64,000 nucleotides of DNA. Origin: Nitrospirota bacterium. GTDB lineage: Bacteria; Nitrospirota; Thermodesulfovibrionia; Thermodesulfovibrionales; Dissulfurispiraceae. The position numbers and the translations under genes were made by a program. The stretch covers positions 96,001-160,000 of the forward strand of contig CAVPZX010000004.1 of the NCBI GenBank assembly GCA_963710375.1. Reading direction: 5' to 3'. Positions within the stretch are counted from its first letter, which is position 1, and every line of letters starts with the position of its first letter. The notes beneath the pieces are model-generated. The model was not told the DNA's origin, ran no database searches, and worked only from the letters and a program-made list of their open reading frames with translations. Below, in pieces: positions 9,859 to 23,271 of the stretch.

Positions 9859-10676
9859 ATGCGAGGCAGGTTGAAGACATTCGGAATAGAAGCGGTTCTC
9901 GTCGTGGTTGGAGCGTTTCTTTTTATTGGCCCTGCATGGGCTGGACCTCCATTCTTTACGGATGATCCGGAACCTGTAGAGTACCTGCACTGGGAAATTT
10001 ACGTGGCCTCCCAATGGGCGCATGACAGGGATTCTGGGACATCAGGTACTCTGCCGCATCTTGAGATTAATTACGGTGTTGTTCCGGATGTGCAGCTCCA
10101 CTTAATAGCGCCGATGGCCTATTCTGCCCCTCACGATTCTTCAACCCAGTATGGGCTGGGCGACATAGAAACGGGCATCAAATATCGCTTTATCCATGAA
10201 GACGAAAAAGGGTGGCGACCGCAGGTTGGTGTCTTTCCTATCGTTGACTTTCCATCAGGTGATGCCTTGAGAGGGCTGGGCTCAGGACATATCAACATTT
10301 TTTTGCCGATATGGGTTCAAAAGAGTGGGGACCCTGGACAACCTACGGTGGAGGAGGCTATGACTATCATCCCGGCGATGATCACAAGAACTACTGGTTT
10401 GCCGGATGGCTTCTGCAGCGGGACTTTTCCAAACTGCTGACGTTAGGGGCTGAAATCTTCAATTCTTCTCCCAAGGAAAAAGGCGAGAGTGACGAAACAG
10501 GGTTCAACGCCGGAGGGTATTTAAACCTGAGTGAAGAACACCATATTCTTTTTTCGGCAGGGCGTGACATAAAAGGGCCGAACACACTTTTCGCATACTT
10601 TGCTTTTCAGTGGACATTCGGTCCTGCAGGAAAGGAGGACCTTCTTGAGAAGCAGCTGGAGAAACCTATCCATTAA
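9859..10676 (+). pseudogene. Putative outer-membrane beta-barrel 'transporter' protein, split by a 1-bp deletion near 10325 (real or assembly error)
   Basis: Signal peptide + GPPFFTDDPEP; ORFs 9859-10440 and 10311-10676 join as WVQK-S-WGPW into 272 aa with one added base. Confidence 0.65.
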
Positions 10677-10759
10677 GACACACTGTCGAGTACCCGGCAT
10701 ATGAAACGGTTCATGATTGCAAGCCAGTATTTTACGGCGTACCTTTTCGAAGCCAACTT

Positions 10760-11914
10760 ATGAAAATTGAAAAAAATGACAGCAGAGTTGGGGAAGTAGC
10801 AGGTCTTTTCCTGAAGCTTGGCACGATTGCCTTTGGCGGCCCGGCGGCGCATATTGCCATGATGCATGACGAGGTGTGCCGCAGGCGCGGATGGGTAAGC
10901 GAGCAGCGTTTTCTGGACCTCCTTGGGGCGGCCAACCTGATCCCGGGCCCCAGTTCCACGGAAATGGCCATTTACCTGGGATATGAGAGGGCCGGGTGGA
11001 GAGGTCTCATTGCCGGCGGGGTCTGCTTCATTATGCCTGCCATGCTTATTGTGCTGATGCTCTCATGGATTTACGTACAATTGGGCTCGACACTACAGGC
11101 AGTCTGGCTTCTCTATGGAATTAAACCGGTCGTCGTTGCTATCATTGTACAGGCCGTGTGGGGACTTAGCAAAAATGCGATCAAAGGACCCATGCTTGCA
11201 GCAGTCAGCTTGCTGGTCTTGGTCTTATACCTAGGCGGGTTCAGTGCGGTTGCTCTCATTTTCGGAAGCGGGCTCTTCGTAATGTGCGCTAAGAACCTGT
11301 GGCGCATCCGGCGTGGAATGCATATGGGTATTGCGCTTCTCCCGGGGCTTGGATTGCCTGTCAACCAGGTTGTGGGAATTCCGGTGCCATTCAGCTTCAC
11401 GGGCCTGTTTTTAATCTTCCTGAAAATCGGCTCTGTAGTCTTCGGATCGGGATATGTCCTCCTGGCTTTTTTGCGAAATGATTTCGTCCATAGGCTGGGC
11501 TGGCTTACCGATCAACAGGTGCTTGATGCAGTTGCCATAGGCCAATTCACACCGGGTCCTGTTTTCACTACTGCCACTTTCATCGGCTTTATTTTAGGCG
11601 GCTTTCATGGAGCTTTACTGGCAACTGTGGCAATATTCCTTCCCTCTTTTTTATTTGTCGCAGCGGTCTTCCCCCTGGTCGGCATTTTGCGCCGATCGCT
11701 GTGGGCCAGTGCATTCCTGGATGGGGTCAACAGCGGGGCGCTAGGTCTCATGGCTGGAGTGACAATGCAGCTTGGCAAAGCAGCACTAATAGACTGGTTT
11801 ACATTATCATTGGCATTGCTTTCAGCCCTGGCCCTTTTTCGGTTCAAAATAAACTCCGCATGGCTGGTATTAGCCGGCGGAGTTATAGGTCTTGCTTACA
11901 AAATGCTTATTTAA
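10760..11914 (+). CDS. chrA: Chromate efflux transporter (long-chain CHR)
   Basis: FGGPAAHIAMM, IPGP, FGSGYVL, TPGPVF duplicated CHR motifs. Confidence 0.92.
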   Translation: MKIEKNDSRVGEVAGLFLKLGTIAFGGPAAHIAMMHDEVCRRRGWVSEQRFLDLLGAANLIPGPSSTEMAIYLGYERAGWRGLIAGGVCFIMPAMLIVLMLSWIYVQLGSTLQAVWLLYGIKPVVVAIIVQAVWGLSKNAIKGPMLAAVSLLVLVLYLGGFSAVALIFGSGLFVMCAKNLWRIRRGMHMGIALLPGLGLPVNQVVGIPVPFSFTGLFLIFLKIGSVVFGSGYVLLAFLRNDFVHRLGWLTDQQVLDAVAIGQFTPGPVFTTATFIGFILGGFHGALLATVAIFLPSFLFVAAVFPLVGILRRSLWASAFLDGVNSGALGLMAGVTMQLGKAALIDWFTLSLALLSALALFRFKINSAWLVLAGGVIGLAYKMLI

Positions 11915-12066
11915 AGATTGCCGTTACGGGGCCTCTTCAAGCGCGTCAACAATATATGGAGGCAATCCGCTCGTGCGATGCAATTGATTTCGAGCTTGTC
12001 TAACCCATTCCATTTAATCATCGCTGAACAAGTGCGAAGTACGTCCCAGCCCAATTGATGAGAGAG

Positions 12067-12327
12067 TTAATTGTGCTGGAGCATGGTTTTTTTCTTTTCC
12101 TCATACTCCTCCTTGTCTATCTCTCCTCGTGCATATCGTTTGTCGAGAATATCCATTGCCGAGTCCGAAATATCTGTATTATTTCTGTCAGCTCTTTGGG
12201 AGCCGGGCCGGCACATCATCAAACCCTTACGTCCCCTCATCATGAAGAATATAAAGATACACAGAATTATTATGAAGAGGGGAAATATACACCACAGAAA
12301 ATAACCATGAGATTCCGGGTAGAACAT
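12067..12327 (-). CDS. Small membrane protein with SHOCT domain
   Basis: One TM then SAMDILDKRYARGEIDKEEYEEKK; AGGAGG RBS. Confidence 0.85.
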   Translation of the reverse strand: MFYPESHGYFLWCIFPLFIIILCIFIFFMMRGRKGLMMCRPGSQRADRNNTDISDSAMDILDKRYARGEIDKEEYEEKKKTMLQHN

Positions 12328-12484
12328 ATAGACCACCTCCTTTCCTAGTACACACTGTTTTCATGTTCCCGTCTCTTCTTTCATGAAACTTTTCACATTA
12401 TCGGTGTTAATCAACCACCCAACAGGTATTTACAAGAAAATCATAAAGTTGAGAGAGCTATCATTATCTTGGTTGCCGATATTT

Positions 12485-12736
12485 CTACTGACTGCATTCA
12501 CTGCCGCCGGCGCAACACCTCCCTTCCTTGACATCGCCGAACAACTTACTTGCAAACTGTTTAGCCTTGCCATTAGCCCCCGTTTTTACTGCTTCCGCAA
12601 CTTGAATTGCAGCCTGCATTTCCTCTTTGGTCAACCCTGCCTGAATTGCCTTTTGATTATGGTATTCCATGCAAGGTTGACAATTCACTGCGTAGGCAAC
12701 ACCTAATGCTATCATTTCCTCAATCTTCGCATCCAT
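12485..12736 (-). CDS. Carboxymuconolactone decarboxylase/AhpD-like protein with Cys-rich tail
   Basis: EMIALGVAYAVNCQPCMEYH CxxC motif; C-terminal CC...C. Confidence 0.85.
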   Translation of the reverse strand: MDAKIEEMIALGVAYAVNCQPCMEYHNQKAIQAGLTKEEMQAAIQVAEAVKTGANGKAKQFASKLFGDVKEGRCCAGGSECSQ

Positions 12737-12777
12737 GTTTTATCTCCCTCCGTACTCGATATTAAATTCCAACCTTA

Positions 12778-12806
12778 TAGACGAAAGCCGGAGAGAAAAG
12801 GATACA
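12778..12806 (-). promoter_or_regulatory. Candidate ECF-sigma promoter for the CMD gene
   Basis: Minus strand TGTATCC-16 bp-CGTCTA; CGTC is a typical ECF -10 core; lies just downstream of the ECF gene. Confidence 0.45.
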
Positions 12807-12819
12807 GCTATTTAGAATT

Positions 12820-13431
12820 TTATCTAAAGTGCAGGATTGTTTGTTTCGGATCGCAAGCCAATTCGTTTCTTTCATCTCGGTAAAAATCACATTGAGCATC
12901 CAGGGCTTCTTTCAATTTGGCCCTGGCGCGATGGAGCCTGATCTTGACTGCATCAAGGCTGATTCCGAGTATTTCTGCAATTTGATTGTTTTTCATTTCT
13001 TCAAGATCGCTCAGTACAATTACCGTCCGATAATCTTCTGGAAGCCCATCAATGACACGACGAATACATCCGTTCATTTCCTTGCGGATAAGCTGCCGGT
13101 CGACAGGGGGGGTCTTTTCGTCTTTCCATGTGTTTTCGTCATCAATCTCGACTTCATCATTCTCAATCGATTCTTTCCCTGTCATCATATACTTGAAATC
13201 CAGGCTGCGCAACTTGTCTAACGCAGTATTGGTAGCGATCCTATATATCCAGGTGGATAGCCCGGACCTTTTCCGGAAGTCCGGCAGGCCGCGACTGATC
13301 TTTATAAAGACTTCCTGGGCAAGGTCTTCAGCTTCAGGCCCTCCCACCAGACGCGTCAAATAGCGAAGGATTTTCGGTCTGTAATAGTCGTGGATCGTAT
13401 TGAAGTCTAATGAACCGTGACTCATGTCCAT
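12820..13431 (-). CDS. ECF RNA polymerase sigma factor with C-terminal Cys motif
   Basis: AEDLAQEVF, TWIYRIATN region 2; IAEILGISLDAVKIRLHRAR region 4; tail CDFYRDERNELACD; TAATG coupling to upstream gene. Confidence 0.9.
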   Translation of the reverse strand: MDMSHGSLDFNTIHDYYRPKILRYLTRLVGGPEAEDLAQEVFIKISRGLPDFRKRSGLSTWIYRIATNTALDKLRSLDFKYMMTGKESIENDEVEIDDENTWKDEKTPPVDRQLIRKEMNGCIRRVIDGLPEDYRTVIVLSDLEEMKNNQIAEILGISLDAVKIRLHRARAKLKEALDAQCDFYRDERNELACDPKQTILHFR

Positions 13432-14786
13432 TAACGGTCTGCCCGAGTCCACGCCTGGGCAGCCATTTGCACAGGGTCCCAGGGGCTGGAGAGTGGCGGG
13501 GTATAACTTAGATCCAGGTCGTTCAATGCCTCGACGGTCATACCATGATGAACTGCCGCAGCCACCGTGTCGATGCGCTTAGAAACCTCTGTGCCGTAAG
13601 TGCCGATGATCTGCATGCCCAGAAGCTTGAGTGTTTTATTGTCGCCCGTGATCCGAATTCGCAATTTTTCCGCGTGGGGATAATAGACCTTATGGTCCCA
13701 AGTGTCAATATCCACAGACAAGGGAGAAAACCCTTCTTTCAATGCTTCATCATCTTTCAGTCCGGTCCGTGCAGCGACAAGATTGAAAATCTTAACGGAT
13801 TGGGTTCCCAAGGAGCCGGTATATTCGCGGTTTCCGCCTACTGAGTTTTCGCCGGCTATACGACCCTGCTTATGGGAGGTAGTGCCCAAGGGCAGGTAAG
13901 TGTTTTTCCCAAGCAGTCGGTGATAAGTTTCTACACAGTCGCCGGCTGCGTAAATATCAGCAATGGAGGTCTCCATTCGCTGATTGACGCAAATTGCGCC
14001 CTTAACGCCGGTTTTGATACCGGCGGATTGGGCCAGACGGGTTTCCGGCTGGATGCCTACGGCCACAAGAACCATATCGGCAGTAATAGCATCTGTGCCT
14101 GAGCACACAGAAAGCGAACCTCCCGTGGATTCGATCTGTTTCACACTAAATTCGTTGAACACCTGAACGCCATTTTTTTCCAATTCCGTCCGCACGATAC
14201 TACCCAAGGCCGGATCAAAAGTTGTGAGAACGGAAGGCGCAAATTCGACTACGGAAACTGAGAGACCCCGTCGCTTCATGGCATCGGCCATTTCCATACC
14301 GATATAACCTGCACCGATTATAACGATAGACGCAGGACGACGAGCCGTGAGGTATTCCTGAAACGCAAAACTGTCCGCCATCGATCTGAGAAAAAAAACG
14401 CCGGGAAGATCGATGCCGGGAAGATTCGGTATAAGAGATATGCCTCCGGTACCTATCACAAGCTTGTCGTAAGAAAAAGTCTTGATACGGCCGATAGTAT
14501 CGGCAGCAACTATTTGTTTTCGGTCAGAAATGATAGATGTGACACGATGCTGTGTCACCACTTTGATGTCTTCTTTTTCGATTTCATCAGCGGTGCGATG
14601 GGCTAATGCTTTCCAGTCAGGCACCTCACCACTCAGATAAAACGGAAGACCGCAGATACTGAAATTGGGATATTGGTCTGCCAGGATCATTGTGACTTCC
14701 GTATTGGGCGCCAATTCCTTGACTCGAAGTCCTGCGCTGATTCCGGCATCACTGCCGCCGATAATTACTATTTTTTCAGTTTTCAT
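13431..14786 (-). CDS. CoA-disulfide reductase/NADH oxidase-like flavoprotein
   Basis: GGSDAG, SICGLP single redox Cys, GAGYIG, AAGD, YTPPLS. Confidence 0.88.
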   Translation of the reverse strand: MKTEKIVIIGGSDAGISAGLRVKELAPNTEVTMILADQYPNFSICGLPFYLSGEVPDWKALAHRTADEIEKEDIKVVTQHRVTSIISDRKQIVAADTIGRIKTFSYDKLVIGTGGISLIPNLPGIDLPGVFFLRSMADSFAFQEYLTARRPASIVIIGAGYIGMEMADAMKRRGLSVSVVEFAPSVLTTFDPALGSIVRTELEKNGVQVFNEFSVKQIESTGGSLSVCSGTDAITADMVLVAVGIQPETRLAQSAGIKTGVKGAICVNQRMETSIADIYAAGDCVETYHRLLGKNTYLPLGTTSHKQGRIAGENSVGGNREYTGSLGTQSVKIFNLVAARTGLKDDEALKEGFSPLSVDIDTWDHKVYYPHAEKLRIRITGDNKTLKLLGMQIIGTYGTEVSKRIDTVAAAVHHGMTVEALNDLDLSYTPPLSSPWDPVQMAAQAWTRADR

Positions 14787-14862
14787 ATCGTGCCTTGTGA
14801 GATTTTTTTACCTTGAAGAAGCTTATATGCCCGTGAATATCTCCCAGAACTCCGATCTTCAT
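14776..14862 (-). pseudogene. 28-aa ORF that begins like a calcineurin-like metallophosphoesterase
   Basis: GGGAGG RBS then MKIGVLGDIHG; similarity ends immediately afterwards. Confidence 0.55.
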
Positions 14863-14949
14863 TAAGACCTCCCAGTTGTGTTCGTATAAATCGTATCACA
14901 ATTTATCAATCCGTGATAGCGTGATATAATCACCAAAAGTAATCATTAT

Positions 14950-15637
14950 TTATTTGTGTTTCTCTGAAACTTTGTTCTTGATCTCTTCCATCCTCTTGGC
15001 AAATGCCTCTTTCTGCCTCCGCTCTGTCTCATCTTTAGGCTCAGATACAGGGTTGGTGACCCTCCATGTGAGACTGGGCGCTTATCGGTCCTTCGGGATA
15101 TGCGCCAATGTCGTGCAGCATATGATTCTCGAACTCTGAAGGGGTTTCCTGGTAACAGGACCAGACAGCCTTTCTTATGAGATCGGGGGTCCCGCGATTG
15201 AGCACATCGATGACCGTAATGATCTGTTTTCTGAAACGCTCGATAAATTCGATAGGGAGGTTGAAGAGATATGGAGTCGGAGCTGTTGTGTTCCTGATTC
15301 TCTTGCGTTCATCAATGCCGTCTTTCAACAGAGACATTATTGCTTCACCCGTAGAATGGCCGGGAGACTCGGGTCCGGTCAGAACAAGATAGCGGATGTT
15401 TGGATTGCCAATGATATTACATATCATTTTCTCGACGCCGATGTTTTCGGTCTGTATCGTCCCTGACAGCGCAGCGCCCGCCTCGACGCCGGTCCTGACG
15501 AGCAGTTCTATGTCCTTCGGGATTTTGTCGTTGTCATAGATCAGTACAACCGCTACCGCTGCAGGAGAATAATCGTTTCCTCTTAGATAGCGGCCTTCTT
15601 CGGTCGGATAATCGGGTGACGGCTCAACCTTGAGCAT
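14950..15637 (-). CDS. Soluble MtrA-like corrinoid protein (tetrahydromethanopterin methyltransferase subunit A family); probable +1 frameshift at ~15077 (as sequenced ends 15041)
   Basis: GAALSG, TENIGVEK, NPNIRYLVLTG, GHSTG (cobamide His), ERFRKQI; alternative frame continues SLTWRVTNP...KHK* (228 aa). Confidence 0.82.
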
Positions 15638-15656
15638 ACTATTCTCCCTTCATAGG

Positions 15657-16730
15657 TTACGAATGAGGGTTAATCTCGGCCACCTTGCAATATGTGCCCG
15701 AAAAATACTTCCTTTGGAAATAAAAGGCCACGTTCACCAGCCCTATCATGACAGGCACCTCTACGAGAGGCCCTATGACTGCCGCAAATGCCGCCCCTGA
15801 GTTAATGCCGAATACTGCCACGGCAACGGCAATGGCAAGCTCGAAATTATTGCTTGCAGCAGTGAAGGAGAGAGTTGCTGTTTTTGCATAATCAGTGCCG
15901 ATCTTCCTGCCCATGTAGAATGAGACAAGAAACATGACTACGAAATAAATCAGCAGCGGGATTGCTATACGAATTACATCCAGTGGGAGTTTGACAATAT
16001 AATTTCCCTTTAGGGAAAACATGACAACGATCGTAAAGAGGAGGAAGATAAGCGTGACCGGGCTGATTTTAGGTATAAATACCCGCTCATACCATTGACG
16101 GCCCTTTATTTTGAGCAGACTGAACCGGGTGATCATTCCAGCGATAAAAGGGATCCCCAGGTAGATGAACACGCTCTCTGCAATCTGCCTTATTGTGACC
16201 TCGACAACGACTCCCTTGAGCCCAAACCATGCCGGCAGTTTCGTTATGAATATATACGCATAAACCGAATAGAAGAGCACCTGAAAAACAGAATTGAACG
16301 CCACGAGCCCGGCAGCGTACTCGGGATCGCCGCAGGCAAGGTCATTCCACACTATAACCATGGCGATGCAGCGTGCCAGACCGATCATTATAAGTCCGAC
16401 CATATATTCCGGATAGTCATGCAAGAAGATAATCGCCAAAGAGAACATGAGGATAGGACCGATAATCCAATTCTGGACAAGAGACACACCCAGCACCTTT
16501 TTGTTCTTAAAGACTTCGCCCAGTTCCTCATATTTGACCTTTGCAAGGGGAGGGTACATCATGAGGATAAGACCCACGGCAATAGGGATATTGGTTGTTC
16601 CGACCTGAAAACTGTTTATCAGGACCTCCACTCCGGGTATGAAATAGCCGAGACCCACACCCAATGCCATAGCCGCAAATATCCATATGGTGAGATAGCG
16701 GTCAAGAAAAGAGAGTTTCTTATCTTCCAT
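15657..16730 (-). CDS. acr3: Arsenite efflux transporter Acr3
   Basis: [46 protein letters not shown]. Confidence 0.96.
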
Positions 16731-16740
16731 CCGCCCCATG

Positions 16741-17169
16741 CTATTTTTCCTCTTTAAGCCACTGCTCTATGCGAGACTTGATCTGGTCCCTTATCCTTTG
16801 CGCACCCTGCAATCGTTCTTCATGGGTGCCCTCGAGTTTGGCAGGATCTTCAAAGGGCCATTTAAGCTGCTTCATCACACCCGGGAAGGAAGGGCATCGT
16901 TCGGCGTTTGCATCATCACAAACAGCTATCACATAGTTATAACGCTTTCCTTCCTTATAAAAGTCAAAAGCACTCTTTACCTTGTTGTTAGATATGTCAT
17001 ACCCGGATTCTTTCATCACTTCAACGATCAGCGGGTTCAATGCGGCGGGGCTTAACCCGGCGCTTTCGGCTATGAATCTATCACCAGCCATAGCATTCAG
17101 AAATGTCTCGGCCATTTGACTCCGGGCCGTGTTATGAACACACACAAATAAAACCTTTTTCTTTTCCAT
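16741..17169 (-). CDS. arsC: Thioredoxin-coupled arsenate reductase (LMW-PTP fold)
   Basis: [14 protein letters not shown]5R motif, VCD...CP resolving cysteines, FEDP. Confidence 0.92.
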
Positions 17170-17200
17170 ATTTTTCCTCCCACTGGCAACGGTTTAATAT

Positions 17201-17542
17201 CTAAGCGCACGAAAGCCCTTTTTTATTTTGCCTGAATTCACTCAATCGATTCTGATCCTCTCTGACAGATTCAGAGGATATCTTTTCCAGTACAGTGTGG
17301 ATTAAGAATCTTTTGAACAGATCTGAATCATGGATACTGTAGTGAATCCACTTCCCCTGTCTTCTGTCCTTGATCAGACCGGCGTCTTTCAGAATTTTGA
17401 GATGAAAAGAAACCTTCGGTTGGAACATGTCGAGCGCAGCGACAATATCGCACACGCAGAGTTCTCCGTCTTCCAATAGCTTTAAAGTCCGGAGCCTTGT
17501 CTCATCAGAGAGGGCTTGAAAAACAGAAACTAATTCGTTCAT
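17201..17542 (-). CDS. arsR: ArsR/SmtB metalloregulator
   Basis: FQALSDETRL, ELCVCD metal site, VSFHLKIL HTH. Confidence 0.93.
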   Translation of the reverse strand: MNELVSVFQALSDETRLRTLKLLEDGELCVCDIVAALDMFQPKVSFHLKILKDAGLIKDRRQGKWIHYSIHDSDLFKRFLIHTVLEKISSESVREDQNRLSEFRQNKKGLSCA

Positions 17543-17778
17543 TGCTCCTCCTTTAAGAGCAACTTCATTCGCTCAATGCCGGGAAGCGGTTTTCCAGAAT
17601 GCTTCAGTTTACCGTTAATGACAAGACCCGGAGTGGACATGGTATATTTCAGAATTTCCTTCACGTCTGATATTTTGTCGATTTTTGCTTCGATGCCGAG
17701 GTCCTCGATGGCCTGTTTCACGAGTTCCTCCATTTTTATGCAATTTGCACATCCGGGGCCGAGCACTTTGACATCCAT
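17539..17778 (-). CDS. Small redox-active disulfide protein (MTH895-like thioredoxin family)
   Basis: KVLGPGCANC, STPGLVING. Confidence 0.88.
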   Translation of the reverse strand: MDVKVLGPGCANCIKMEELVKQAIEDLGIEAKIDKISDVKEILKYTMSTPGLVINGKLKHSGKPLPGIERMKLLLKEEQ

Positions 17779-17789
17779 GGCAACTCTCC

Positions 17790-18140
17790 TTAAAATACTA
17801 TTTTTTCAGATGCATCTCTTATCGCCGCACTGGTCACTTCTGTCTTTCCCTTCTTATACCCGAAATCCTCAAGCATATAAGATTTCGGCGTGAATCCCGC
17901 ATTTTCGAGTATTTTCTTTGCACATAAAGACGCACAGCCGTCAATGGTGACAGTCGCCGCTGCCTTTACCGCGGCTATCTTTTCAGGTATGTTTGCTCCA
18001 ACGGCAGCCATACAATACATCTTACCCTTTCCATCTTTAGATAGTTTTCTTGCAACCTGGTCGGATAACGCCCCTACGTCCGCCGCACCCGAGCAAGAGA
18101 AAATTAGCACATTTTTGTCGCCACATGCGCACTCTGTCAT
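17790..18140 (-). CDS. DGC-domain putative zinc-binding protein
   Basis: CSGAADVG, C-x-A-x-VG, IDGCASLCA. Confidence 0.85.
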   Translation of the reverse strand: MTECACGDKNVLIFSCSGAADVGALSDQVARKLSKDGKGKMYCMAAVGANIPEKIAAVKAAATVTIDGCASLCAKKILENAGFTPKSYMLEDFGYKKGKTEVTSAAIRDASEKIVF

Positions 18141-18179
18141 ATCGTCCTCCTTAAGTTGAAACTTGAAGACCAGCGGTCT

Positions 18180-19127
18180 TCATAAAATCGCATTGAAAAG
18201 ATAACCAACCATAATGATTCCCGTAGCAACAATACCGAAAAAGGTACAGATAAGCCTCATCTTCAGCACTTTCTTTAAAATTACCGCTTCGGGGAAGGAG
18301 ATTGCGGTAACCGACATCATAAAGGCCAGCACCGTCCCTATTGCCATTCCTTTTCCAACAAGGGCCTGGACAACCGGAATCATGCCGGCTGCGTTACTGT
18401 ATAAAGGAATGCCGATCAGCACTGCCACCAGCACACCGAAAGGGTTATCACGTCCGGCATATTTGACAACAAAGTCGGTCGGTACGTATCCGTGGACAAT
18501 CCCTCCCAACGCGATGCCGGCGATAACATAAGGCCATATCCTTTTCAGAAGGTCGGCAGTATAGTCAAGAGCATAATTAATCTTGTAATGGAAACTGGTT
18601 TTCATAATCTCCATGTTCGCCACTTCTGTTTCCCACACATAATCCTGGACATACTTTTCCATCCTGAACCTGCCGATGACGATGCCGGAGGCAATTGCCA
18701 GCACAACCCCGCAACCTGTGTAGATCAGGGAGATCTTCCACCCGAAAAGCCCCCATAACATAATCAAAGCTATTTCATTGACCATAGGGGACGAAATAAG
18801 AAAGGAGAATGTGACCCCCAGTGGTACCCCTGCTTCCACGAAACCGATGAAAAGGGGGACTGCTGAGCAGGAACAAAAAGGGGTGACGATTCCGAGCAGT
18901 GCTGCCATTACATTACCGATGTATTCCTTTTTATGAGACAATATAAGCCTGGTTTTTTCAGGTGGAAAATATGCCCGGATTACTGCCACCGCAAAGATGA
19001 TGGTGCATAGCAGCAGGAATATCTTTATAGTATCGTAGATGAAGAAATTGAGGGCTTCTCCAGCATGGCTCTTTGGCTGCAGCTTCAACAACGAATAAGT
19101 AATGTAATCCGCAAATTCCTGGAGCAT
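18180..19127 (-). CDS. arsP: ArsP/DUF318 permease (organoarsenical efflux family)
   Basis: TPFCSCSAVP, SFLISSPMVNE, ISFPE; ars operon context. Confidence 0.85.
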   Translation of the reverse strand: MLQEFADYITYSLLKLQPKSHAGEALNFFIYDTIKIFLLLCTIIFAVAVIRAYFPPEKTRLILSHKKEYIGNVMAALLGIVTPFCSCSAVPLFIGFVEAGVPLGVTFSFLISSPMVNEIALIMLWGLFGWKISLIYTGCGVVLAIASGIVIGRFRMEKYVQDYVWETEVANMEIMKTSFHYKINYALDYTADLLKRIWPYVIAGIALGGIVHGYVPTDFVVKYAGRDNPFGVLVAVLIGIPLYSNAAGMIPVVQALVGKGMAIGTVLAFMMSVTAISFPEAVILKKVLKMRLICTFFGIVATGIIMVGYLFNAIL

Positions 19128-19143
19128 TTCACCATCTCTACAT

Positions 19144-19193
19144 ATCAACTTAATTTGATGTAATACTTTACCGCATGCTCATTTATTTGTCAA
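19144..19193 (-). promoter_or_regulatory. ars operon promoter and ArsR-type operator
   Basis: Minus strand TTGACA-17 bp-TAAAGT, then palindrome ATCAA-N6-TTGAT (19144-19159) at the presumed start site. Confidence 0.75.
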
Positions 19194-19320
19194 GCTTCTT
19201 AACAAACTGGCCCACTAACAATAAAATAGACTAAAAGTCCTTTACCAACACTCGATTGCAGATCTTGACAAATACAAATAATTGAATATAAACTTCCTCT
19301 TGCAGTTAACGGTTCATGAA

Positions 19321-19617
19321 CTAACAGCAGTTGCTCTTCTTGTCGCTGCCACTGCAGTCACAGGAAGGTTCGCCGCCGGTCATCATACTGTTTATAAGAG
19401 CGAAAGCACAGCCTACTCCTTTGTTTACAGACACTGCATTAAAGGCGCAATTGTTCACGCAGGCCCCGCATTCCATACAACTGTCGCGGTCCTGAATTAT
19501 GGCCTTCTTATTATCCAGGGTAAAGACTTCATGTGGACAAACCTCCACGCACATCCCGCACCCTGTACACTTTTCCGGAAAGATCTCGATGGTTGACGCG
19601 TTTAAGAGGTACTTCAT
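19321..19617 (-). CDS. hgcB: Mercury methylation ferredoxin HgcB
   Basis: Two CxxCxxCxxxC motifs incl. CMECGAC, GVGCA, C-terminal CC; ATGA overlap with hgcA. Confidence 0.95.
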   Translation of the reverse strand: MKYLLNASTIEIFPEKCTGCGMCVEVCPHEVFTLDNKKAIIQDRDSCMECGACVNNCAFNAVSVNKGVGCAFALINSMMTGGEPSCDCSGSDKKSNCC

Positions 19618-20741
19618 ATGACCCCCCACATGGTAAGTTTGTACATTATTAATAGAATCAATGAGACTCCGCAAGAAACAATATAGGTAGGGATAGCAAC
19701 TCGAAGTTCTTGTTTGACTCCCGACATCCCTGTAAACGTAGTTGATCCCGTGAACTGCAGGGCAATGAAAGAACTTGCCGCAGGGAAGAAAAGGTAAGTG
19801 ACCATAAGAAGAAAAGTGTTTTGTTGAATGAGCAATGGAACAAATTTTGACGACAGAAAAACAGAAAGCATCCCGATTATCCACCCCTTGACTGCAAAAG
19901 ACCTGAAGGGGACATAGGGCAGAATCACAGGAGTCAACAGCGCACCAGAAAAGACAGATACAAGGCCTAAAAGCAGAAAGGGCAAGCCCCCGGTGTATGC
20001 GTCTTTAAACATGATGCCTGATGGTGAAAGTCCAAAGACAACCAGGACAAGTGCTGCGTATAACGGGAATTTCTTCATTGCAGGATTGATCTCCATTGGA
20101 GTAAGGACCAATCTGTCGTAAACGGGGAAATTTACCCTCCGCATTTCCCTCGTCGCTTTATACCCCGCCTTGATATAAGCGGGTATATCTTTGGCGCGCA
20201 CCGGTCCGTAAAGGACCTTGAAACCAGAAGACTGTTTTACCTTAAAGGCGCTGACACCTGGCGCTCCAAGCTGGGGGACGATAATCCGCCTGTGGGCCAC
20301 CACCTTGTCCAACTGTGCCGCTGAAATGCGCTTTACCAATTCGGCGGTGCCAAACGTTCCCTTTCCAGCTGCACACCAGACATTAATACCTTTCGTGTCC
20401 AGAACAAGAATCCAGGCATCAAGTCCTTTAAGTGAGCATCTGAGCAAGTCAAAGCTGTATTTATAATTTGCACTGACAAGGACATCCGAGTCCCTGTCAG
20501 GGTCGCCGACAGCGTATAGACCGGCATTGACCGTATAATTGTTCCTGTATGAAGTTGTTCTGCATTTGAAATGTTCCCACTGATCGGTCCTCGAAAGAAC
20601 AGTTGATACCCGGTGAACTGACCCTATCGGCGTCGCAACATTGCCGCTGACCCAATCCGGAGTATTTTTCAGCGACACACTACAGCATGTCTGCCCCGGC
20701 ATCTGATTTTCCAATCTGGATCTGAATTTAAGTTCCTGCAT
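19614..20741 (-). CDS. hgcA: Mercury methylation corrinoid protein HgcA
   Basis: Cap helix GINVWCAAGKG, SANYK, PQLGAPGV, YGPVRA; C-terminal TM domain with FTGSTTFT. Confidence 0.97.
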   Translation of the reverse strand: MQELKFRSRLENQMPGQTCCSVSLKNTPDWVSGNVATPIGSVHRVSTVLSRTDQWEHFKCRTTSYRNNYTVNAGLYAVGDPDRDSDVLVSANYKYSFDLLRCSLKGLDAWILVLDTKGINVWCAAGKGTFGTAELVKRISAAQLDKVVAHRRIIVPQLGAPGVSAFKVKQSSGFKVLYGPVRAKDIPAYIKAGYKATREMRRVNFPVYDRLVLTPMEINPAMKKFPLYAALVLVVFGLSPSGIMFKDAYTGGLPFLLLGLVSVFSGALLTPVILPYVPFRSFAVKGWIIGMLSVFLSSKFVPLLIQQNTFLLMVTYLFFPAASSFIALQFTGSTTFTGMSGVKQELRVAIPTYIVSCGVSLILLIMYKLTMWGVI

Positions 20742-20753
20742 ATTCGAAAACTC

Positions 20754-21026
20754 TTACAGTATTTCCTTGAGTATAGGACCTAGCTGGCCTTTGACCATTT
20801 CGACCATGTCTTCAACCTTAATCAGGGTTATACAGCATACCTCTCCATTCTTCTCCCAACTGGTCACTGCCAGTTTGTCGCCGGCCTTGATCTTGGCCTT
20901 GTCCCGCAATTCCTTGGGCAGCACCATTTGTCCTCTTTCATCCACACTAATGATAGACTCGACCTTGCAGCTTGCATTTGTCCTGTTCGAGGATATGCCG
21001 CAGGTCACACTCTCTTGTTTTTTCAT
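20754..21026 (-). CDS. hgcC: AbrB/MazE/SpoVT-fold HgcAB-associated protein
   Basis: CKVESIISVDERGQMVLPKELR...GDKL...VCC; directly upstream of hgcA. Confidence 0.8.
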   Translation of the reverse strand: MKKQESVTCGISSNRTNASCKVESIISVDERGQMVLPKELRDKAKIKAGDKLAVTSWEKNGEVCCITLIKVEDMVEMVKGQLGPILKEIL

Positions 21027-21048
21027 GTTGCTCTCCACCTCAATTATC

Positions 21049-21299
21049 TTGCAATTCAGACGGTGTAATGAAGGATGTGTCTCTGAAGCGAATCGCGGAG
21101 TCCTGGTAACAGTTCTCGGCGAAGTGAGCGTCTAACAGGCGCAATGTCCGAGCCCGAAGAACCGGGGTCCCCAAAAAGTCGAAGACTTTGTGGGGTGGCG
21201 GAAGAGTTTTGCGACTGTAGCGAACAAGCCGTTAGAACTGTCAGGATGTAGCGCCTGAGCGCAAAAGACACATCCTTCATTACACCGTCTGAATTGCAA
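21049..21299. mobile_element. Palindromic mini-element family B, copy 1 (contains 40-bp hairpin insert 21161-21200)
   Basis: Perfect 34-bp inverted repeat 21049-21082/21266-21299; interior homologous (inverted) to 47035-47227. Confidence 0.8.
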
Positions 21300-21316
21300 T
21301 GATTTATACTCCATCA

Positions 21317-21357
21317 CTGAATATTCTGATTATACTGATATAAGTTATTAATGTCAA
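21317..21357 (-). promoter_or_regulatory. Consensus sigma70 promoter facing hgcCAB, overlapped by three 9-bp-period repeats
   Basis: Minus strand TTGACA-17 bp-TATAAT; plus-strand CTGA at 21317, 21326, 21335. Confidence 0.75.
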
Positions 21358-21428
21358 TACCGACTGCGGCGTGTTTTAGCCCACACATGTTGTTGCTTCT
21401 TTCCCCTGAACAGAATACAATGTGTTAT

Positions 21429-22034
21429 ATGAATATGTTAGATCCGTTTCTGCTGACAATCATTCCGCTCATGGTCGCCATAGACGCGCCAGGGGTGCTG
21501 CCTTTTTACCTGGTGATGACCGAAGGCATAGACCGGCGTGAGAAAAAGAGGATAGCGCGGGAATCTGTCTTCACGGCGCTGCTGATCACGCTGCTGTTTG
21601 TTCTCCTGGGAAGGGCGGTATTCAAAATACTCGGCATTTTGGTTGAGGATTTTATGATCGCCGGCGGGATATTATTGTTGGTTATTTCGATTTCAGACCT
21701 GCTGACTGCCGGAAACGGTAGAACGGCTGTGTCAACGACATCAGGCCCGGCGTCAGGTATAGTTCCGCTCGGGACACCGCTGCTGGCGGGTCCAGCCACC
21801 CTGACAACCTGCCTTTTACTCGTGGGGAATTATGGGTATTTTCCGGTTATTCTTTCGCTCATTATAAATCTCATTCTGGCCTGGTTATTATTTGACAAGG
21901 CCGACGTTATTATAAGAAAAATCGGGGTGAATGGAGCCCGAGGCATTACGCGGCTGGCCTCACTACTGCTTGCTGCTATAGCTGTGAGGATGATACGCCT
22001 GGGTATTTTACGGCTTATAAATAGCGGTCAATAA
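21429..22034 (+). CDS. MarC family membrane protein
   Basis: DAPGVLPFY, FMIAGGILL, IVPLGTPLLAGPA. Confidence 0.9.
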   Translation: MNMLDPFLLTIIPLMVAIDAPGVLPFYLVMTEGIDRREKKRIARESVFTALLITLLFVLLGRAVFKILGILVEDFMIAGGILLLVISISDLLTAGNGRTAVSTTSGPASGIVPLGTPLLAGPATLTTCLLLVGNYGYFPVILSLIINLILAWLLFDKADVIIRKIGVNGARGITRLASLLLAAIAVRMIRLGILRLINSGQ

Positions 22035-23271
22035 TTACGTTCACTCTTGTTCCTTTCCCATACTCGCTTTCGATCCTCATGCTCCAGCCGTGAGCGCCTA
22101 CCAGGTGCTTTACGATGGCGAGTCCGAGACCTGTACCCCCTAATTCTCTGGAACGTGCGCTGTCAACGCGGTAAAACCGCTCCCCAAGCCTGTTCAGGTA
22201 TCGCGAGGGGATACCGATACCCGTATCCTGCACGAAAAGGGCGACTCTCCCCCCGGTTTCATCAATGCCCACAGTTACGCCGCCTTTTTCGGTGAATTTG
22301 ATGCCGTTATCCACGAGATTGATTATAATTTGAATAAGCTTATCTTTGTCTGCGGCAATGGCCTGAGTACTTTGAAGTAGTTCTTTACTCAGAGAAAGCC
22401 CTTTTTTGTCCGCCTTATCTTTGAGCATCATGAAAACGGTATCTATCACCTGATCAAGGCTGACTTCCGTTTTGTTGATTTTGACATCGCCGAGTTCGAT
22501 TCCGGACAGCGCGAGCAAGTCATCAACAAGGCTGTTAAGACGCTCGCTGTGGTTTTTGATCATTATAAGAAACCTGACTGAATTGTCCTTATCATCAAGC
22601 GCGCCATCGAGCAATGTTTCGGCAAACCCCTTTATCGCGGTTATCGGCGTCTTGATTTCATGGGACACATTGGCGACAAAATCCTTTCTCACTTCTTCGA
22701 GTTGTCTCAACCTCGTAATGTCATGGAGTGTGAGGACAATACCCCTTACGGAGTCCTCACTGTAAATGGGCACCGCTGTTGCAATGAGAAACATTTCCCT
22801 GTTGCCACGCGTTACTGTGATTTCATCCGAGACAATCTCCCACGACTCTAAGGCCCTCCGCACAATTTCGATCAGCTGTGCATTGCGCACGACATCCATG
22901 ATCTGTTTGCCCTCGATATTCTCGGTAACCGAAAGAAGCTTTTTGAAGGTGCGGTTGGCCAGAATTACCGTATCGTGCGCGTCGGTTATAAGCACGCCGT
23001 CCGACATGCCCCTGAGTATGGCTTCCATCCTCTGCATCTCAGCTTCGGCAAAACCGAGCCGCATATTTGTTTTCTCAATAATGGCGACAATGTCCCTGGC
23101 CATCGAATCCAGTTTGCCGGATTTGTTTGTGAAAAGCCGCGCGTTCAGGTTGCCTGAGGAAAGCTCTTTGAGCAGGTTGGAAATTGCATTTACAGACAGG
23201 TGCAAGCGGATGACATAGATGACAAAAAACAATACGATGAGCGAGAGGATGACAATGACCCGAGTTTCCAT
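22015..23271 (-). CDS. phoR: PhoR-like sensor histidine kinase (PAS, HisKA, HATPase)
   Basis: RKDFVANVSHEIKTP, ERFYRVDSARSRELGGTGLGLAIVKH. Confidence 0.8.
   Translation of the reverse strand: METRVIVILSLIVLFFVIYVIRLHLSVNAISNLLKELSSGNLNARLFTNKSGKLDSMARDIVAIIEKTNMRLGFAEAEMQRMEAILRGMSDGVLITDAHDTVILANRTFKKLLSVTENIEGKQIMDVVRNAQLIEIVRRALESWEIVSDEITVTRGNREMFLIATAVPIYSEDSVRGIVLTLHDITRLRQLEEVRKDFVANVSHEIKTPITAIKGFAETLLDGALDDKDNSVRFLIMIKNHSERLNSLVDDLLALSGIELGDVKINKTEVSLDQVIDTVFMMLKDKADKKGLSLSKELLQSTQAIAADKDKLIQIIINLVDNGIKFTEKGGVTVGIDETGGRVALFVQDTGIGIPSRYLNRLGERFYRVDSARSRELGGTGLGLAIVKHLVGAHGWSMRIESEYGKGTRVNVIIDRYL

Follow-up and report, generated by a model that had tools for sequence, protein, structure and literature searches.

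What does a relative of a methanogen corrinoid protein do among the arsenic-resistance (ars) genes of a bacterium? The question is raised by a 64,000-nucleotide stretch from a Nitrospirota bacterium of the family Dissulfurispiraceae (GenBank assembly GCA_963710375.1, contig CAVPZX010000004.1, positions 96,001 to 160,000), here called the window, in which a gene for a protein resembling MtrA, the cobamide-carrying subunit of the methanogen methyltransferase MtrA-H, follows the arsenite permease gene acr3 on the minus strand, some 4 kb from the mercury-methylation genes hgcAB. A preliminary description of this DNA had proposed that the protein serves a cobamide-dependent branch of arsenic chemistry or, alternatively, acts as a methyl or cobamide shuttle for HgcA. 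Our analysis supports the view that this MtrA-family protein is soluble, that its cobamide site is intact and that its gene is enriched in the ars clusters of many phyla. Because the gene recurs in the ars runs of anaerobes, and because its carriers almost universally encode AcsC, the corrinoid protein of the Wood-Ljungdahl pathway, the MtrA-like protein likely performs a B12-dependent step of arsenic handling; it is unlikely to act on behalf of the nearby genes of mercury methylation.

The gene and the single-base anomaly within it are the following:

14950..15637, minus strand: soluble MtrA-like predicted cobamide-binding protein of ~228 aa (MtrA domain profiles and homologue alignment)
15073, strand not applicable: one extra assembly base, causing an apparent frameshift and an early end of the open reading frame (ORF) at 15041 (missing from short-read assemblies)

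The motifs TENIGVEK, NPNIRY and GHSTG, from which an MtrA-family core 19 bp after acr3 had been recognized, all lie within a minus-strand ORF beginning at 15637, and the assignment is borne out by matches to Pfam PF04208 (MtrA, 130 bits) and to NCBIfam NF002126 (165.7 bits, above its cut-off of 161); the cut-off of the methanogen equivalog TIGR01111 is not reached (124 against 249 bits). PF04208 has no second match in the genome, which is 98.8% complete. In the assembly the ORF ends at 15041 after 198 aa, with the remainder in the next frame to 14950, owing to one extra base at 15073. That base is missing from all four short-read assemblies compared (two studies, with one run possibly the source sample); in a repeat comparison, two of four carried the same deletion, one broke at that point with compatible loose ends and one had no coverage. 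The break is therefore an assembly error, which rules out genuine truncation or a programmed frameshift: the gene is intact, its product has about 228 aa, and the span originally proposed, 14950-15637, is the true gene once the extra base is accounted for. The tail motif W[RK][VI] of the second frame is present in 115 of 120 homologues among the matches listed, most of which are 228-231 aa long, and the database homologue P0002, 94% identical, was used as a full-length stand-in for the window protein.

The protein comprises an MtrA domain (~residues 1-175), a TWRVTxP..EPKDE linker and a charged C-terminal helix. PF04208 is its sole domain, with no C-terminal DUF4346 or thymidylate-synthase-like domain, and the clades that carry such fusions form separate tree branches. 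No leader peptide is found at the N-terminus, and the reported lack of a membrane anchor holds across 119 homologues, whose last 60 aa reach a maximum 19-residue hydropathy of 0.84, against 2.3-2.8 in four archaeal-type references. The statement that no other mtr subunits lie nearby also stands, as the neighbours are ars genes and MtrH (PF02007) was not found in the genome, the other Mtr subunits not having been searched one by one. The named closest homologues belong to Dissulfurispiraceae/Thermodesulfovibrionales (Nitrospirota), and the sequencing runs that hold at least half of the words of the window DNA are soil metagenomes.

MtrA's site for cobalamin binding can be followed residue by residue into this protein. 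In the available text of Wagner et al. (2016, PMC4915002), cobalamin is contacted in a cytoplasmic MtrA homologue by His84 on the cobalt, Glu54, Asn55, Thr53, Gly57, Asn64, Tyr18, Val61 and the backbone. Alignment to that structure (PDB 5LAA) gives His94, Glu64, Asn65, Thr63, Gly67, Asn74, Tyr17 and Met71 as counterparts. Among 106 aligned homologues, His94, Glu64, Thr63, Gly67 and Asn74 are invariant (106/106), Asn65 is kept in 99 (Ser in seven) and Tyr17 in 101 (Phe in five), and all side-chain cobalamin contacts of the solved MtrA are counted as conserved; the cobalt-ligand His is retained in 79 of 80 loci from GTDB genomes. The protein is predicted on this basis to bind a cobamide via His94, with Glu64 as partner. 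The AlphaFold model of the 94% identical full-length homologue (mean predicted local distance difference test score 84.7) matches PDB 5L8X/5LAA in Foldseek at E ~1e-16 with target template-modelling (TM) scores of 0.90-0.92; MtrA is the only match at E < 0.001, and a search of the ESM Atlas returned MtrA clusters only. The clade is set apart by 10 residues inserted behind the first core strand, by Cys73 (104/106) and Cys161 (105/106), and by the C-terminal tail. In one relative (L015, P0025) the cobalt-binding His is replaced by Arg and the N-terminus bears a Nif11-like extension; a second, normal copy lies after acr3 in the same genome. That the window protein is intact, of the cobamide type and part of this genome's ars unit is, in our view, very probable.

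Compared with described systems, this is a known kind of protein in an undescribed arsenic setting, and its co-occurrence with AcsC is new. The protein has the fold (target TM 0.90-0.91), the His-Glu axial pair and the nucleotide-tail contacts of MtrA from the Na+-pumping methyl-tetrahydromethanopterin:coenzyme M methyltransferase MtrA-H (PDB 5L8X, 8Q3V, 9QTR/9QTS). It differs from that subunit in identity (~35%), in lacking the C-terminal membrane helix, in falling short of TIGR01111, in the insert after strand 1, in Cys73 in place of Ala and in the conserved TWRVTxP..EPKDE tail, and its gene lies outside any mtrEDCBAFGH operon, in a genome with neither MtrH nor a second MtrA. The cytoplasmic archaeal homologues, such as that of M. 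fervidus (PDB 5LAA), are likewise soluble, and the solved one binds cobalamin (PMC4915002, available text), but they have 170-180 aa and are 60-97% identical to MtrA, unlike the ~228-aa window protein. The available text of Wagner et al. (2016, PMC4915002) also mentions ~40% identical MtrA homologues in some bacteria, with His84 mostly kept, and gives for them no function and no arsenic context. In the literature covered, which extends to neither subscription papers nor supplements, we found no paper linking bacterial MtrA homologues to arsenic. MtxA of Methanosarcina is a cytoplasmic MtrA homologue too; the window genome has no MtrH/MtxH partner. Systems of the methyltransferase 1/methyltransferase 2 kind (Mta or Mtt type) place a substrate-specific methyltransferase beside the corrinoid protein, whereas the MtrA-like gene has no such recurrent neighbour.

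The link to arsenic rests on recurrence. A scan of GTDB genomes found relatives in 421 stretches, and neighbourhoods were counted in the best 80 of the 421, with five same-genome pairs included, so that the sample is biased towards near relatives. Neighbouring genes were detected with hidden Markov models built from recurring neighbours, and a locus was called ars-linked if it lay within 6 kb of acr3, arsP, arsA or arsD. By this measure 33 of the 80 loci are ars-linked, or 22 of the 44 with flanks of at least 3 kb on both sides, against 0.5% of the positions in this genome that qualify by chance; two further loci have arsM only and one has arsC only. The enrichment near ars genes that the preliminary description had led one to look for is thus present, and that near hgcA (3/80) is not. 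The neighbours within the 33 loci are acr3 (28), arsR (27), Trx3 (19), arsP (16), arsC (16), CcdA (14), DGC (10), ArsM (9) and hgcA (3), and ars genes and their companions are the sole recurrent neighbours of the MtrA-like gene. At least seven phylum-level groups carry it in ars runs (Nitrospirota, Acidobacteriota, Fraserbacteria, Aerophobetes, Spirochaetota, Chloroflexota and Planctomycetota), at varying positions, behind acr3, arsR, arsC, arsP, arsM or DGC. Twelve short-form metagenome loci retrieved with a query from another clade comprised eight ars-linked ones and four on short contigs. Within the window's family (64 genomes), acr3 occurs in 12 of 13 carriers and 27 of 51 other genomes (p 0.011, the kin not being independent). 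About half of the close relatives, mostly in Desulfobacterota, stand alone with no ars gene nearby, and the neighbours of non-ars loci are mutually unrelated (81 of 141 candidate ORFs scanned). Two candidates were set aside: an apparent ArsC-MtrA fusion (P0277) appears to be a frameshift artefact, and the 'arsA' called next to L133 amounts to a weak match to a CooC-like ATPase.

The distribution follows the tree. In a FastTree phylogeny of 167 domains, from which 41 long-clade rows were excluded for thinning, the short forms make up one clade (96 rows, support 95). Two of its subgroups (support 83 and 85), which hold the window protein and the Planctomycetota/Aerophobetes forms, contain 34 ars-linked loci and one stand-alone locus among 35 informative ones, and a third (support 95, mostly Desulfobacterota and Spirochaetota) contains nine ars-linked and 21 stand-alone loci, with 22 too short to call. 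As controls, a DUF4346-fused clade shows no ars gene in any of 10 regions, which come largely from kin and include three whose flank is short, although two Terriglobia copies adjoin arsR-family genes; and none of the 61 loci of the long sister clade, mostly on short contigs, has acr3 or arsP, with arsM present in two of the eight that have long flanks. From these linkage counts, tree subgroups and control clades we conclude that the arsenic link is real, clade-specific and not universal.

In the window, the minus-strand order from 21038 to 12067 is hgcC, hgcA, hgcB, arsP, DGC, MTH895/ArsE thioredoxin-like, arsR, arsC, acr3, the MtrA-like gene, a coenzyme A (CoA)-disulfide-reductase-like gene, an extracytoplasmic function (ECF) sigma factor, an AhpD/carboxymuconolactone-decarboxylase (CMD)-like gene and a SHOCT gene. 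The features around the MtrA-like gene are:

15657..16739, minus strand: acr3 arsenite efflux permease (TIGR00832, 468 bits, above cut-off)
16741..17169, minus strand: arsC-like arsenate reductase of the low-molecular-weight protein tyrosine phosphatase fold (PF01451; TIGR02691 at 108 bits, below cut-off)
17201..17542, minus strand: ArsR repressor with an ELCVCD motif (NF033788)
17539..17778, minus strand: MTH895/ArsE-family thioredoxin-like protein (PF13192, TIGR00412)
17790..18140, minus strand: DGC-domain protein with four conserved Cys (PF08859, alignment)
18180..19148, minus strand: ArsP-family permease with PFCSCSAVP (PF03773, 263 bits)
19144-19159, minus strand: palindrome ATCAA-N6-TTGAT, a weak candidate for an ArsR operator (sequence)
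19193-19165, minus strand: predicted ars-run promoter TTGACA-17-TAAAGT (consensus match)
19617-19321, minus strand: hgcB (NF040864, above cut-off)
20741-19614, minus strand: hgcA (NF040863, above cut-off)
21038-20754, minus strand: hgcC (NF040962, above cut-off)
21357-21329, minus strand: predicted perfect consensus promoter of hgcCAB itself (consensus match)
14786-13431, minus strand: CoA-disulfide-reductase-like flavoprotein (profile matches)
13452-12820, minus strand: ECF sigma factor (profile matches)
12736-12485, minus strand: AhpD/CMD-like protein (profile matches)

The intergenic gaps from arsP to the MtrA-like gene are 39, 11, -4, 31, 1 and 19 bp, with 163 bp behind the latter and, upstream of arsP, 172 bp holding the consensus promoter and the palindrome. 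These gaps suggest that the MtrA-like gene is the last of the ars operon, and spacing and promoter together predict an arsenite-inducible arsP-to-mtrA transcript separate from hgcCAB. The true start of ArsP is probably the ATG near 19127, its relatives having 315-316 aa. In ArsR proteins of the E. coli type, the ELCVCD motif carried by the window ArsR is the site for As(III). The literature consulted did not confirm the palindrome as an ArsR box. It has seven exact copies in the genome, occurs with at most one mismatch close to 2 of 21 stand-alone loci and has no exact copy upstream of any of 43 other ars-linked loci; it was rejected as a regulon marker and kept as a weak operator candidate. 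The gap behind the MtrA-like gene contains an inverted repeat, TATCAC...GTGATA, and the AhpD/CMD-like protein shows weak similarity, below cut-off throughout, to the arsenic-linked (seleno)protein families TIGR04169, NF041047 and NF041537. Between the hgcC promoter and hgcC, positions 21051-21262 form a multi-copy repeat, with a contig depth of 110-149 compared with 16, numerous loose ends and 44 bases skipped in a single run. On the plus strand, a gene at 9859-10676 is split into two ORFs by an absent base at 10325 that is present in all three covering short-read assemblies, which makes this a second assembly error; neither piece has a Pfam match.

Partners were compared between 12 family loci with the MtrA-like gene (counted by hand) and 20 acr3 loci without it, three of them from carrier genomes. 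The former more often include DGC (5/12 against 1/20), thioredoxin plus CcdA (8/12 against 2-3/20) and disulfide reductase (2/12 against 1/20). There is no excess of arsP (7/12 against 10/20), and its enrichment was dropped as a sign of organoarsenical specificity. DGC and CoA-disulfide-reductase-like proteins are at most candidate partners: DGC adjoins a minority of the 33 ars-linked loci (10) and the reductase-like gene three. A complex prediction for the MtrA-like domain with the DGC protein scored 0.03 (mark 0.32), which weighs neither way. A variant DGC subfamily (CFGGxSNTG...KKxLxEDIG) is encoded immediately upstream of that gene in Chloroflexota, in Aerophobetes and on a single metagenome contig (L055:7428-7865, L084:9529-9981, L164:291-728). 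Behind the MtrA-like gene in two Spirochaetota loci (L073, L079) come genes for a radical SAM/SPASM protein, for one other product and for a disulfide reductase, a module that we take to be possibly of the arsenosugar type and ArsS-like.

The most constant genomic partner lies outside the ars run. AcsC was found in 42 of 43 carrier genomes tested, comprising all 28 with ars context, among them metagenome-assembled genomes of 1.1-1.3 Mb, and 5/5, 5/5 and 4/5 others; this genome is also positive, with its acs cluster on contig C2. In Terriglobia, the class of G272, AcsC occurs in 16 of 401 genomes; all six short-form carriers, the centre genome counted in, are among the 16, and the short form occurs in none of the other 385. 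RACo is present in 27 of the 28 ars-context genomes, and this genome has two RACo genes. As a whole it (G000) holds 22 B12-binding-domain matches, two RACo genes, the acs cluster and hgcA, yet no CobS match. Some relatives are fused to Fe-S modules, either a 2[4Fe-4S] ferredoxin (P0248) or a PF04060 module of the type found in CFeSP, the corrinoid iron-sulfur protein (P0251), and others to a Cys-rich helical domain; the fusions suggest that cobalt in the MtrA-like family may cycle through Co(I).

Our favoured mechanism, to which we assign a probability of about 0.4, is that of a cobamide methyl carrier loaded from the Wood-Ljungdahl pathway that methylates As(III). The arsP-DGC-trx-arsR-arsC-acr3-mtrA run would be under ArsR control, co-transcribed and induced by arsenic. 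The soluble MtrA-fold protein would bind its cobamide through His94 and receive a methyl group from the Wood-Ljungdahl branch, by AcsE/methyl-tetrahydrofolate or methyl-CFeSP, with RACo/ferredoxin reactivating the cobalt. The methyl group would be passed to thiol-bound As(III) or methyl-As(III), and the products would be exported by ArsP or Acr3 or lost as volatile methylarsines. Overall this would be a domesticated, ArsM-independent version of a side reaction of methanogens, with the same chemistry but with a dedicated gene under a predicted ArsR promoter where the methanogen reaction is incidental and unregulated by arsenic. Methylation of metalloids in methanogens through methylcobalamin and MtaA was reportedly described by Thomas in 2011 and Wuerfel in 2012. 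According to the available portions of PMC13262295 and PMC6950371, methylcobalamin methylates As(III) non-enzymatically with glutathione, arsenic methylation via MtaA is an unregulated side reaction, and the ratio of methyl-Co to Co(I) sets methylation against hydride formation; the native MtrA reaction passes a methyl group from a His-ligated cobamide to a thiol (Wagner 2016, PMC4915002, available text). It is this chemistry, together with methyl transfer to a thiol by MtrA, that places As(III) methylation first. The Fe-S fusions of relatives fit redox-cycling cobalt, and an arsM gene adjacent or one small gene away in seven loci (L029, L047, L050, L085, L089, L163, L167) agrees more readily with a joint role in methylation than with demethylation in a futile cycle.

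Several observations weigh against As(III) methylation by this protein. The operon holds no gene for a methyltransferase partner, and no substrate-specific methyltransferase occurs among the recurrent neighbours beyond ArsM in a minority. Methyl-As(III) is more toxic than arsenite where oxygen is lacking, so methylation would be useful only if continued to exported or volatile products. ArsP, which would export the product expected here, shows no enrichment beside the MtrA-like gene, and the commonest neighbour, Acr3, is equally compatible with demethylation or protection. ArsM occurs in 14 of the 28 ars-context genomes and was not found in this one (98.8% complete), which indicates neither dependence nor exclusion. 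In the third short-form subgroup, 21 of 30 informative loci have neither an ars gene within 6 kb nor an ArsR-type box. One carrier (G294) has no AcsC match; in the window's family AcsC also occurs in nine of ten non-carriers, so the AcsC link may merely mark strict anaerobes; and Terriglobia, the only background class with an AcsC contrast, contributes six proteins that are 83-97% identical. With such close kin and such AcsC-positive non-carriers, the link looks necessary but reflects few independent events. CobS, finally, was not found in this genome (98.8% complete) and was matched in 17 of 28 carrier genomes, leaving 11 without.

The direction of methyl transfer cannot be read from sequence, and a wider formulation than As(III) methylation is open to either direction: we put at about even the odds that Wood-Ljungdahl anaerobes of many phyla possess a dedicated, arsenic-induced, MtrA-descended cobamide enzyme that makes or breaks As-C bonds by exchanging methyl groups with the acetyl-CoA pathway.

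Of the other explanations, the one that survives best, though we judge it unlikely, is that the protein protects corrinoids, as a cobamide reservoir, decoy or repair factor under arsenic stress with no net arsenic transformation as its purpose; it would keep As(III) and methylarsenicals from draining or blocking methyl-CFeSP and other corrinoid enzymes. The near-constant presence of AcsC in carriers (42/43), an operon without a catalytic partner and the frequency of stand-alone copies all suit such a role, as does the side reaction of exposed Co(I) or methyl-Co with metalloids (PMC13262295, PMC6950371, available portions). The Fe-S fusions of relatives suggest turnover rather than storage, cob/btu families are not among the recurring neighbours, and no Rfam family, cobalamin riboswitches included, was found at gathering score in window positions 10000-23000 or in 19 non-ars loci.

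Slightly less probable still is an oxygen-independent demethylase, an anaerobic counterpart of ArsI, in which Co(I) would take the methyl group from methyl- or dimethyl-As(III) and give it to the Wood-Ljungdahl pathway while Acr3 exports arsenite. ArsM and ArsI are, like the proposed enzyme, ars-cluster proteins that make or break As-C bonds, but ArsM depends on S-adenosylmethionine (SAM), and neither has any sequence relation to the MtrA-like protein. Here Acr3, the most constant neighbour (28/33 loci, 12/13 family genomes), would be the expected exporter and AcsC the methyl sink. Demethylation beside ArsM, encoded no more than 6 kb away in 9 of 33 loci as well as in two arsM-only loci, would however amount to a futile cycle; no methyltransferase 1 for activation of the C-As bond is encoded nearby; and trivalent arsenic is a poor leaving group. 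A precedent exists in a methylotrophic methanogen that demethylates dimethylarsenite, DMAs(III), for which corrinoid proteins have been invoked, ArsI itself being a dioxygenase (Chen 2023, PMC10579292, available text).

We consider it improbable that the protein is a low-potential reductase whose Co(I), regenerated by ferredoxin or fused Fe-S modules, would reduce As(V) or methyl-As(V) ahead of export or turn As(III) into arsine. Independent Fe-S fusions in relatives, hydride generation driven by cob(I)alamin (PMC6950371, available portion) and the excess over acr3 alone of secreted thioredoxin plus CcdA or of disulfide reductase lend themselves to this reading. Set against them, ArsC is already present in 16 of 33 loci, the window clade has no fused Fe-S domain, and the flanking thioredoxin carries a leader peptide and is probably extracytoplasmic. 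An equally small chance goes to the view that Wood-Ljungdahl anaerobes use the protein in general cobamide or thiol stress, its gene being carried along on metal(loid)-resistance islands without any function specific to arsenic. That about half of the loci stand among unrelated genes, and that acr3 and arsP are absent from the 61 long-sister-clade loci, mostly on short contigs, would be expected of such a passenger; a position inside, not beside, ars runs of differing order and phylum, and 34 of 35 informative loci ars-linked in two tree groups, would not.

The hgcAB genes do lie 4 kb away as reported (hgcA ends at 19614; NF040863, 403 bits; NVWCAAGK motif). HgcA resembles the MtrA-like protein as a corrinoid protein of anaerobes directed at a toxic metal(loid) and often encoded beside ars genes, but it has a CFeSP-derived fold, a Cys-type motif and a membrane domain, is unrelated to MtrA and does not co-occur with the MtrA-like gene. 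That hgcAB can lie next to ars genes is already known, and 'mtrA' does not appear in the main text of the Gionfriddo preprint (10.1101/2022.10.17.512643), to which the comparison is limited. Fifty genomes were chosen to represent the 80 loci, covering 28 of the 33 that are ars-linked plus 22 more; hgcA is present in 27 of them, 11 of 28 and 16 of 22 respectively, leaving 17 of 28 ars-context genomes without a match; in the window's family hgcA is found in 7 of 13 carriers and 22 of 51 others (p 0.54), 22 of 29 hgcA genomes lack the MtrA-like gene, and hgcA adjoins 6 of 20 acr3 loci that also lack it. The two genes share a common island, not a common pathway. The idea that the protein ferries methyl groups or cobamides to HgcA, and so ties methylmercury output to arsenic exposure, is hence largely refuted as a general role and very improbable, the adjacency of hgcAB in L012, its distance of 4 kb here, the 27 hgcA-bearing carriers and a split long-clade locus (L153) that abuts hgcA being outweighed by hgcA within 6 kb in only 3 of 80 loci, by these genome counts and by the separate predicted promoter of hgcCAB.

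Other MtrA-domain relatives show different architectures. The long sister clade (L091-L156, P0122-P0240) joins the MtrA domain to a Cys-rich helical domain (DICHxGC...CQKxxGxCxxGxGC) that has no Pfam match and is often repeated as one or two small downstream genes; some members also bear, at the N-terminus, a TusA-like domain containing a Cys-Cys pair. In L123 the cassette lies between two halves of an arsM gene. A thymidylate-synthase-like domain is fused to the MtrA domain in 15 of 50 representatives scanned, and one other carries dCTP deaminase plus DUF4346 (the set being P0272, P0275, P0278, P0284, P0285, P0289, P0295, P0297, P0302, P0335, P0341, P0348, P0350, P0352, P0371 and P0384); these fusions point to a possible cobamide-linked route to deoxythymidine monophosphate. 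In one family of the window's class, 41 of 46 genomes have a PF04208 match (L170-L198, L208-L217), and the copies examined combine a Cys-rich domain, MtrA and DUF4346, mostly next to parA/parB; the form looks like a fixed housekeeping gene.

The genes and organisms that methylate and demethylate arsenic in anoxic soils are only partly known, and how DMAs is demethylated is described as unclear (Chen 2023, PMC10579292, available text). A short soluble protein that lies in ars clusters and is nearly confined to Wood-Ljungdahl organisms offers a testable candidate and a possible marker gene, one whose database name, tetrahydromethanopterin S-methyltransferase subunit A, could be mistaken for a sign of methanogenesis. 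If the proposed role is true, it would provide the first function for bacterial MtrA homologues and an arsenic counterpart of HgcA, and would add a third, SAM- and oxygen-independent route to the organoarsenic cycle of anoxic soils and sediments.

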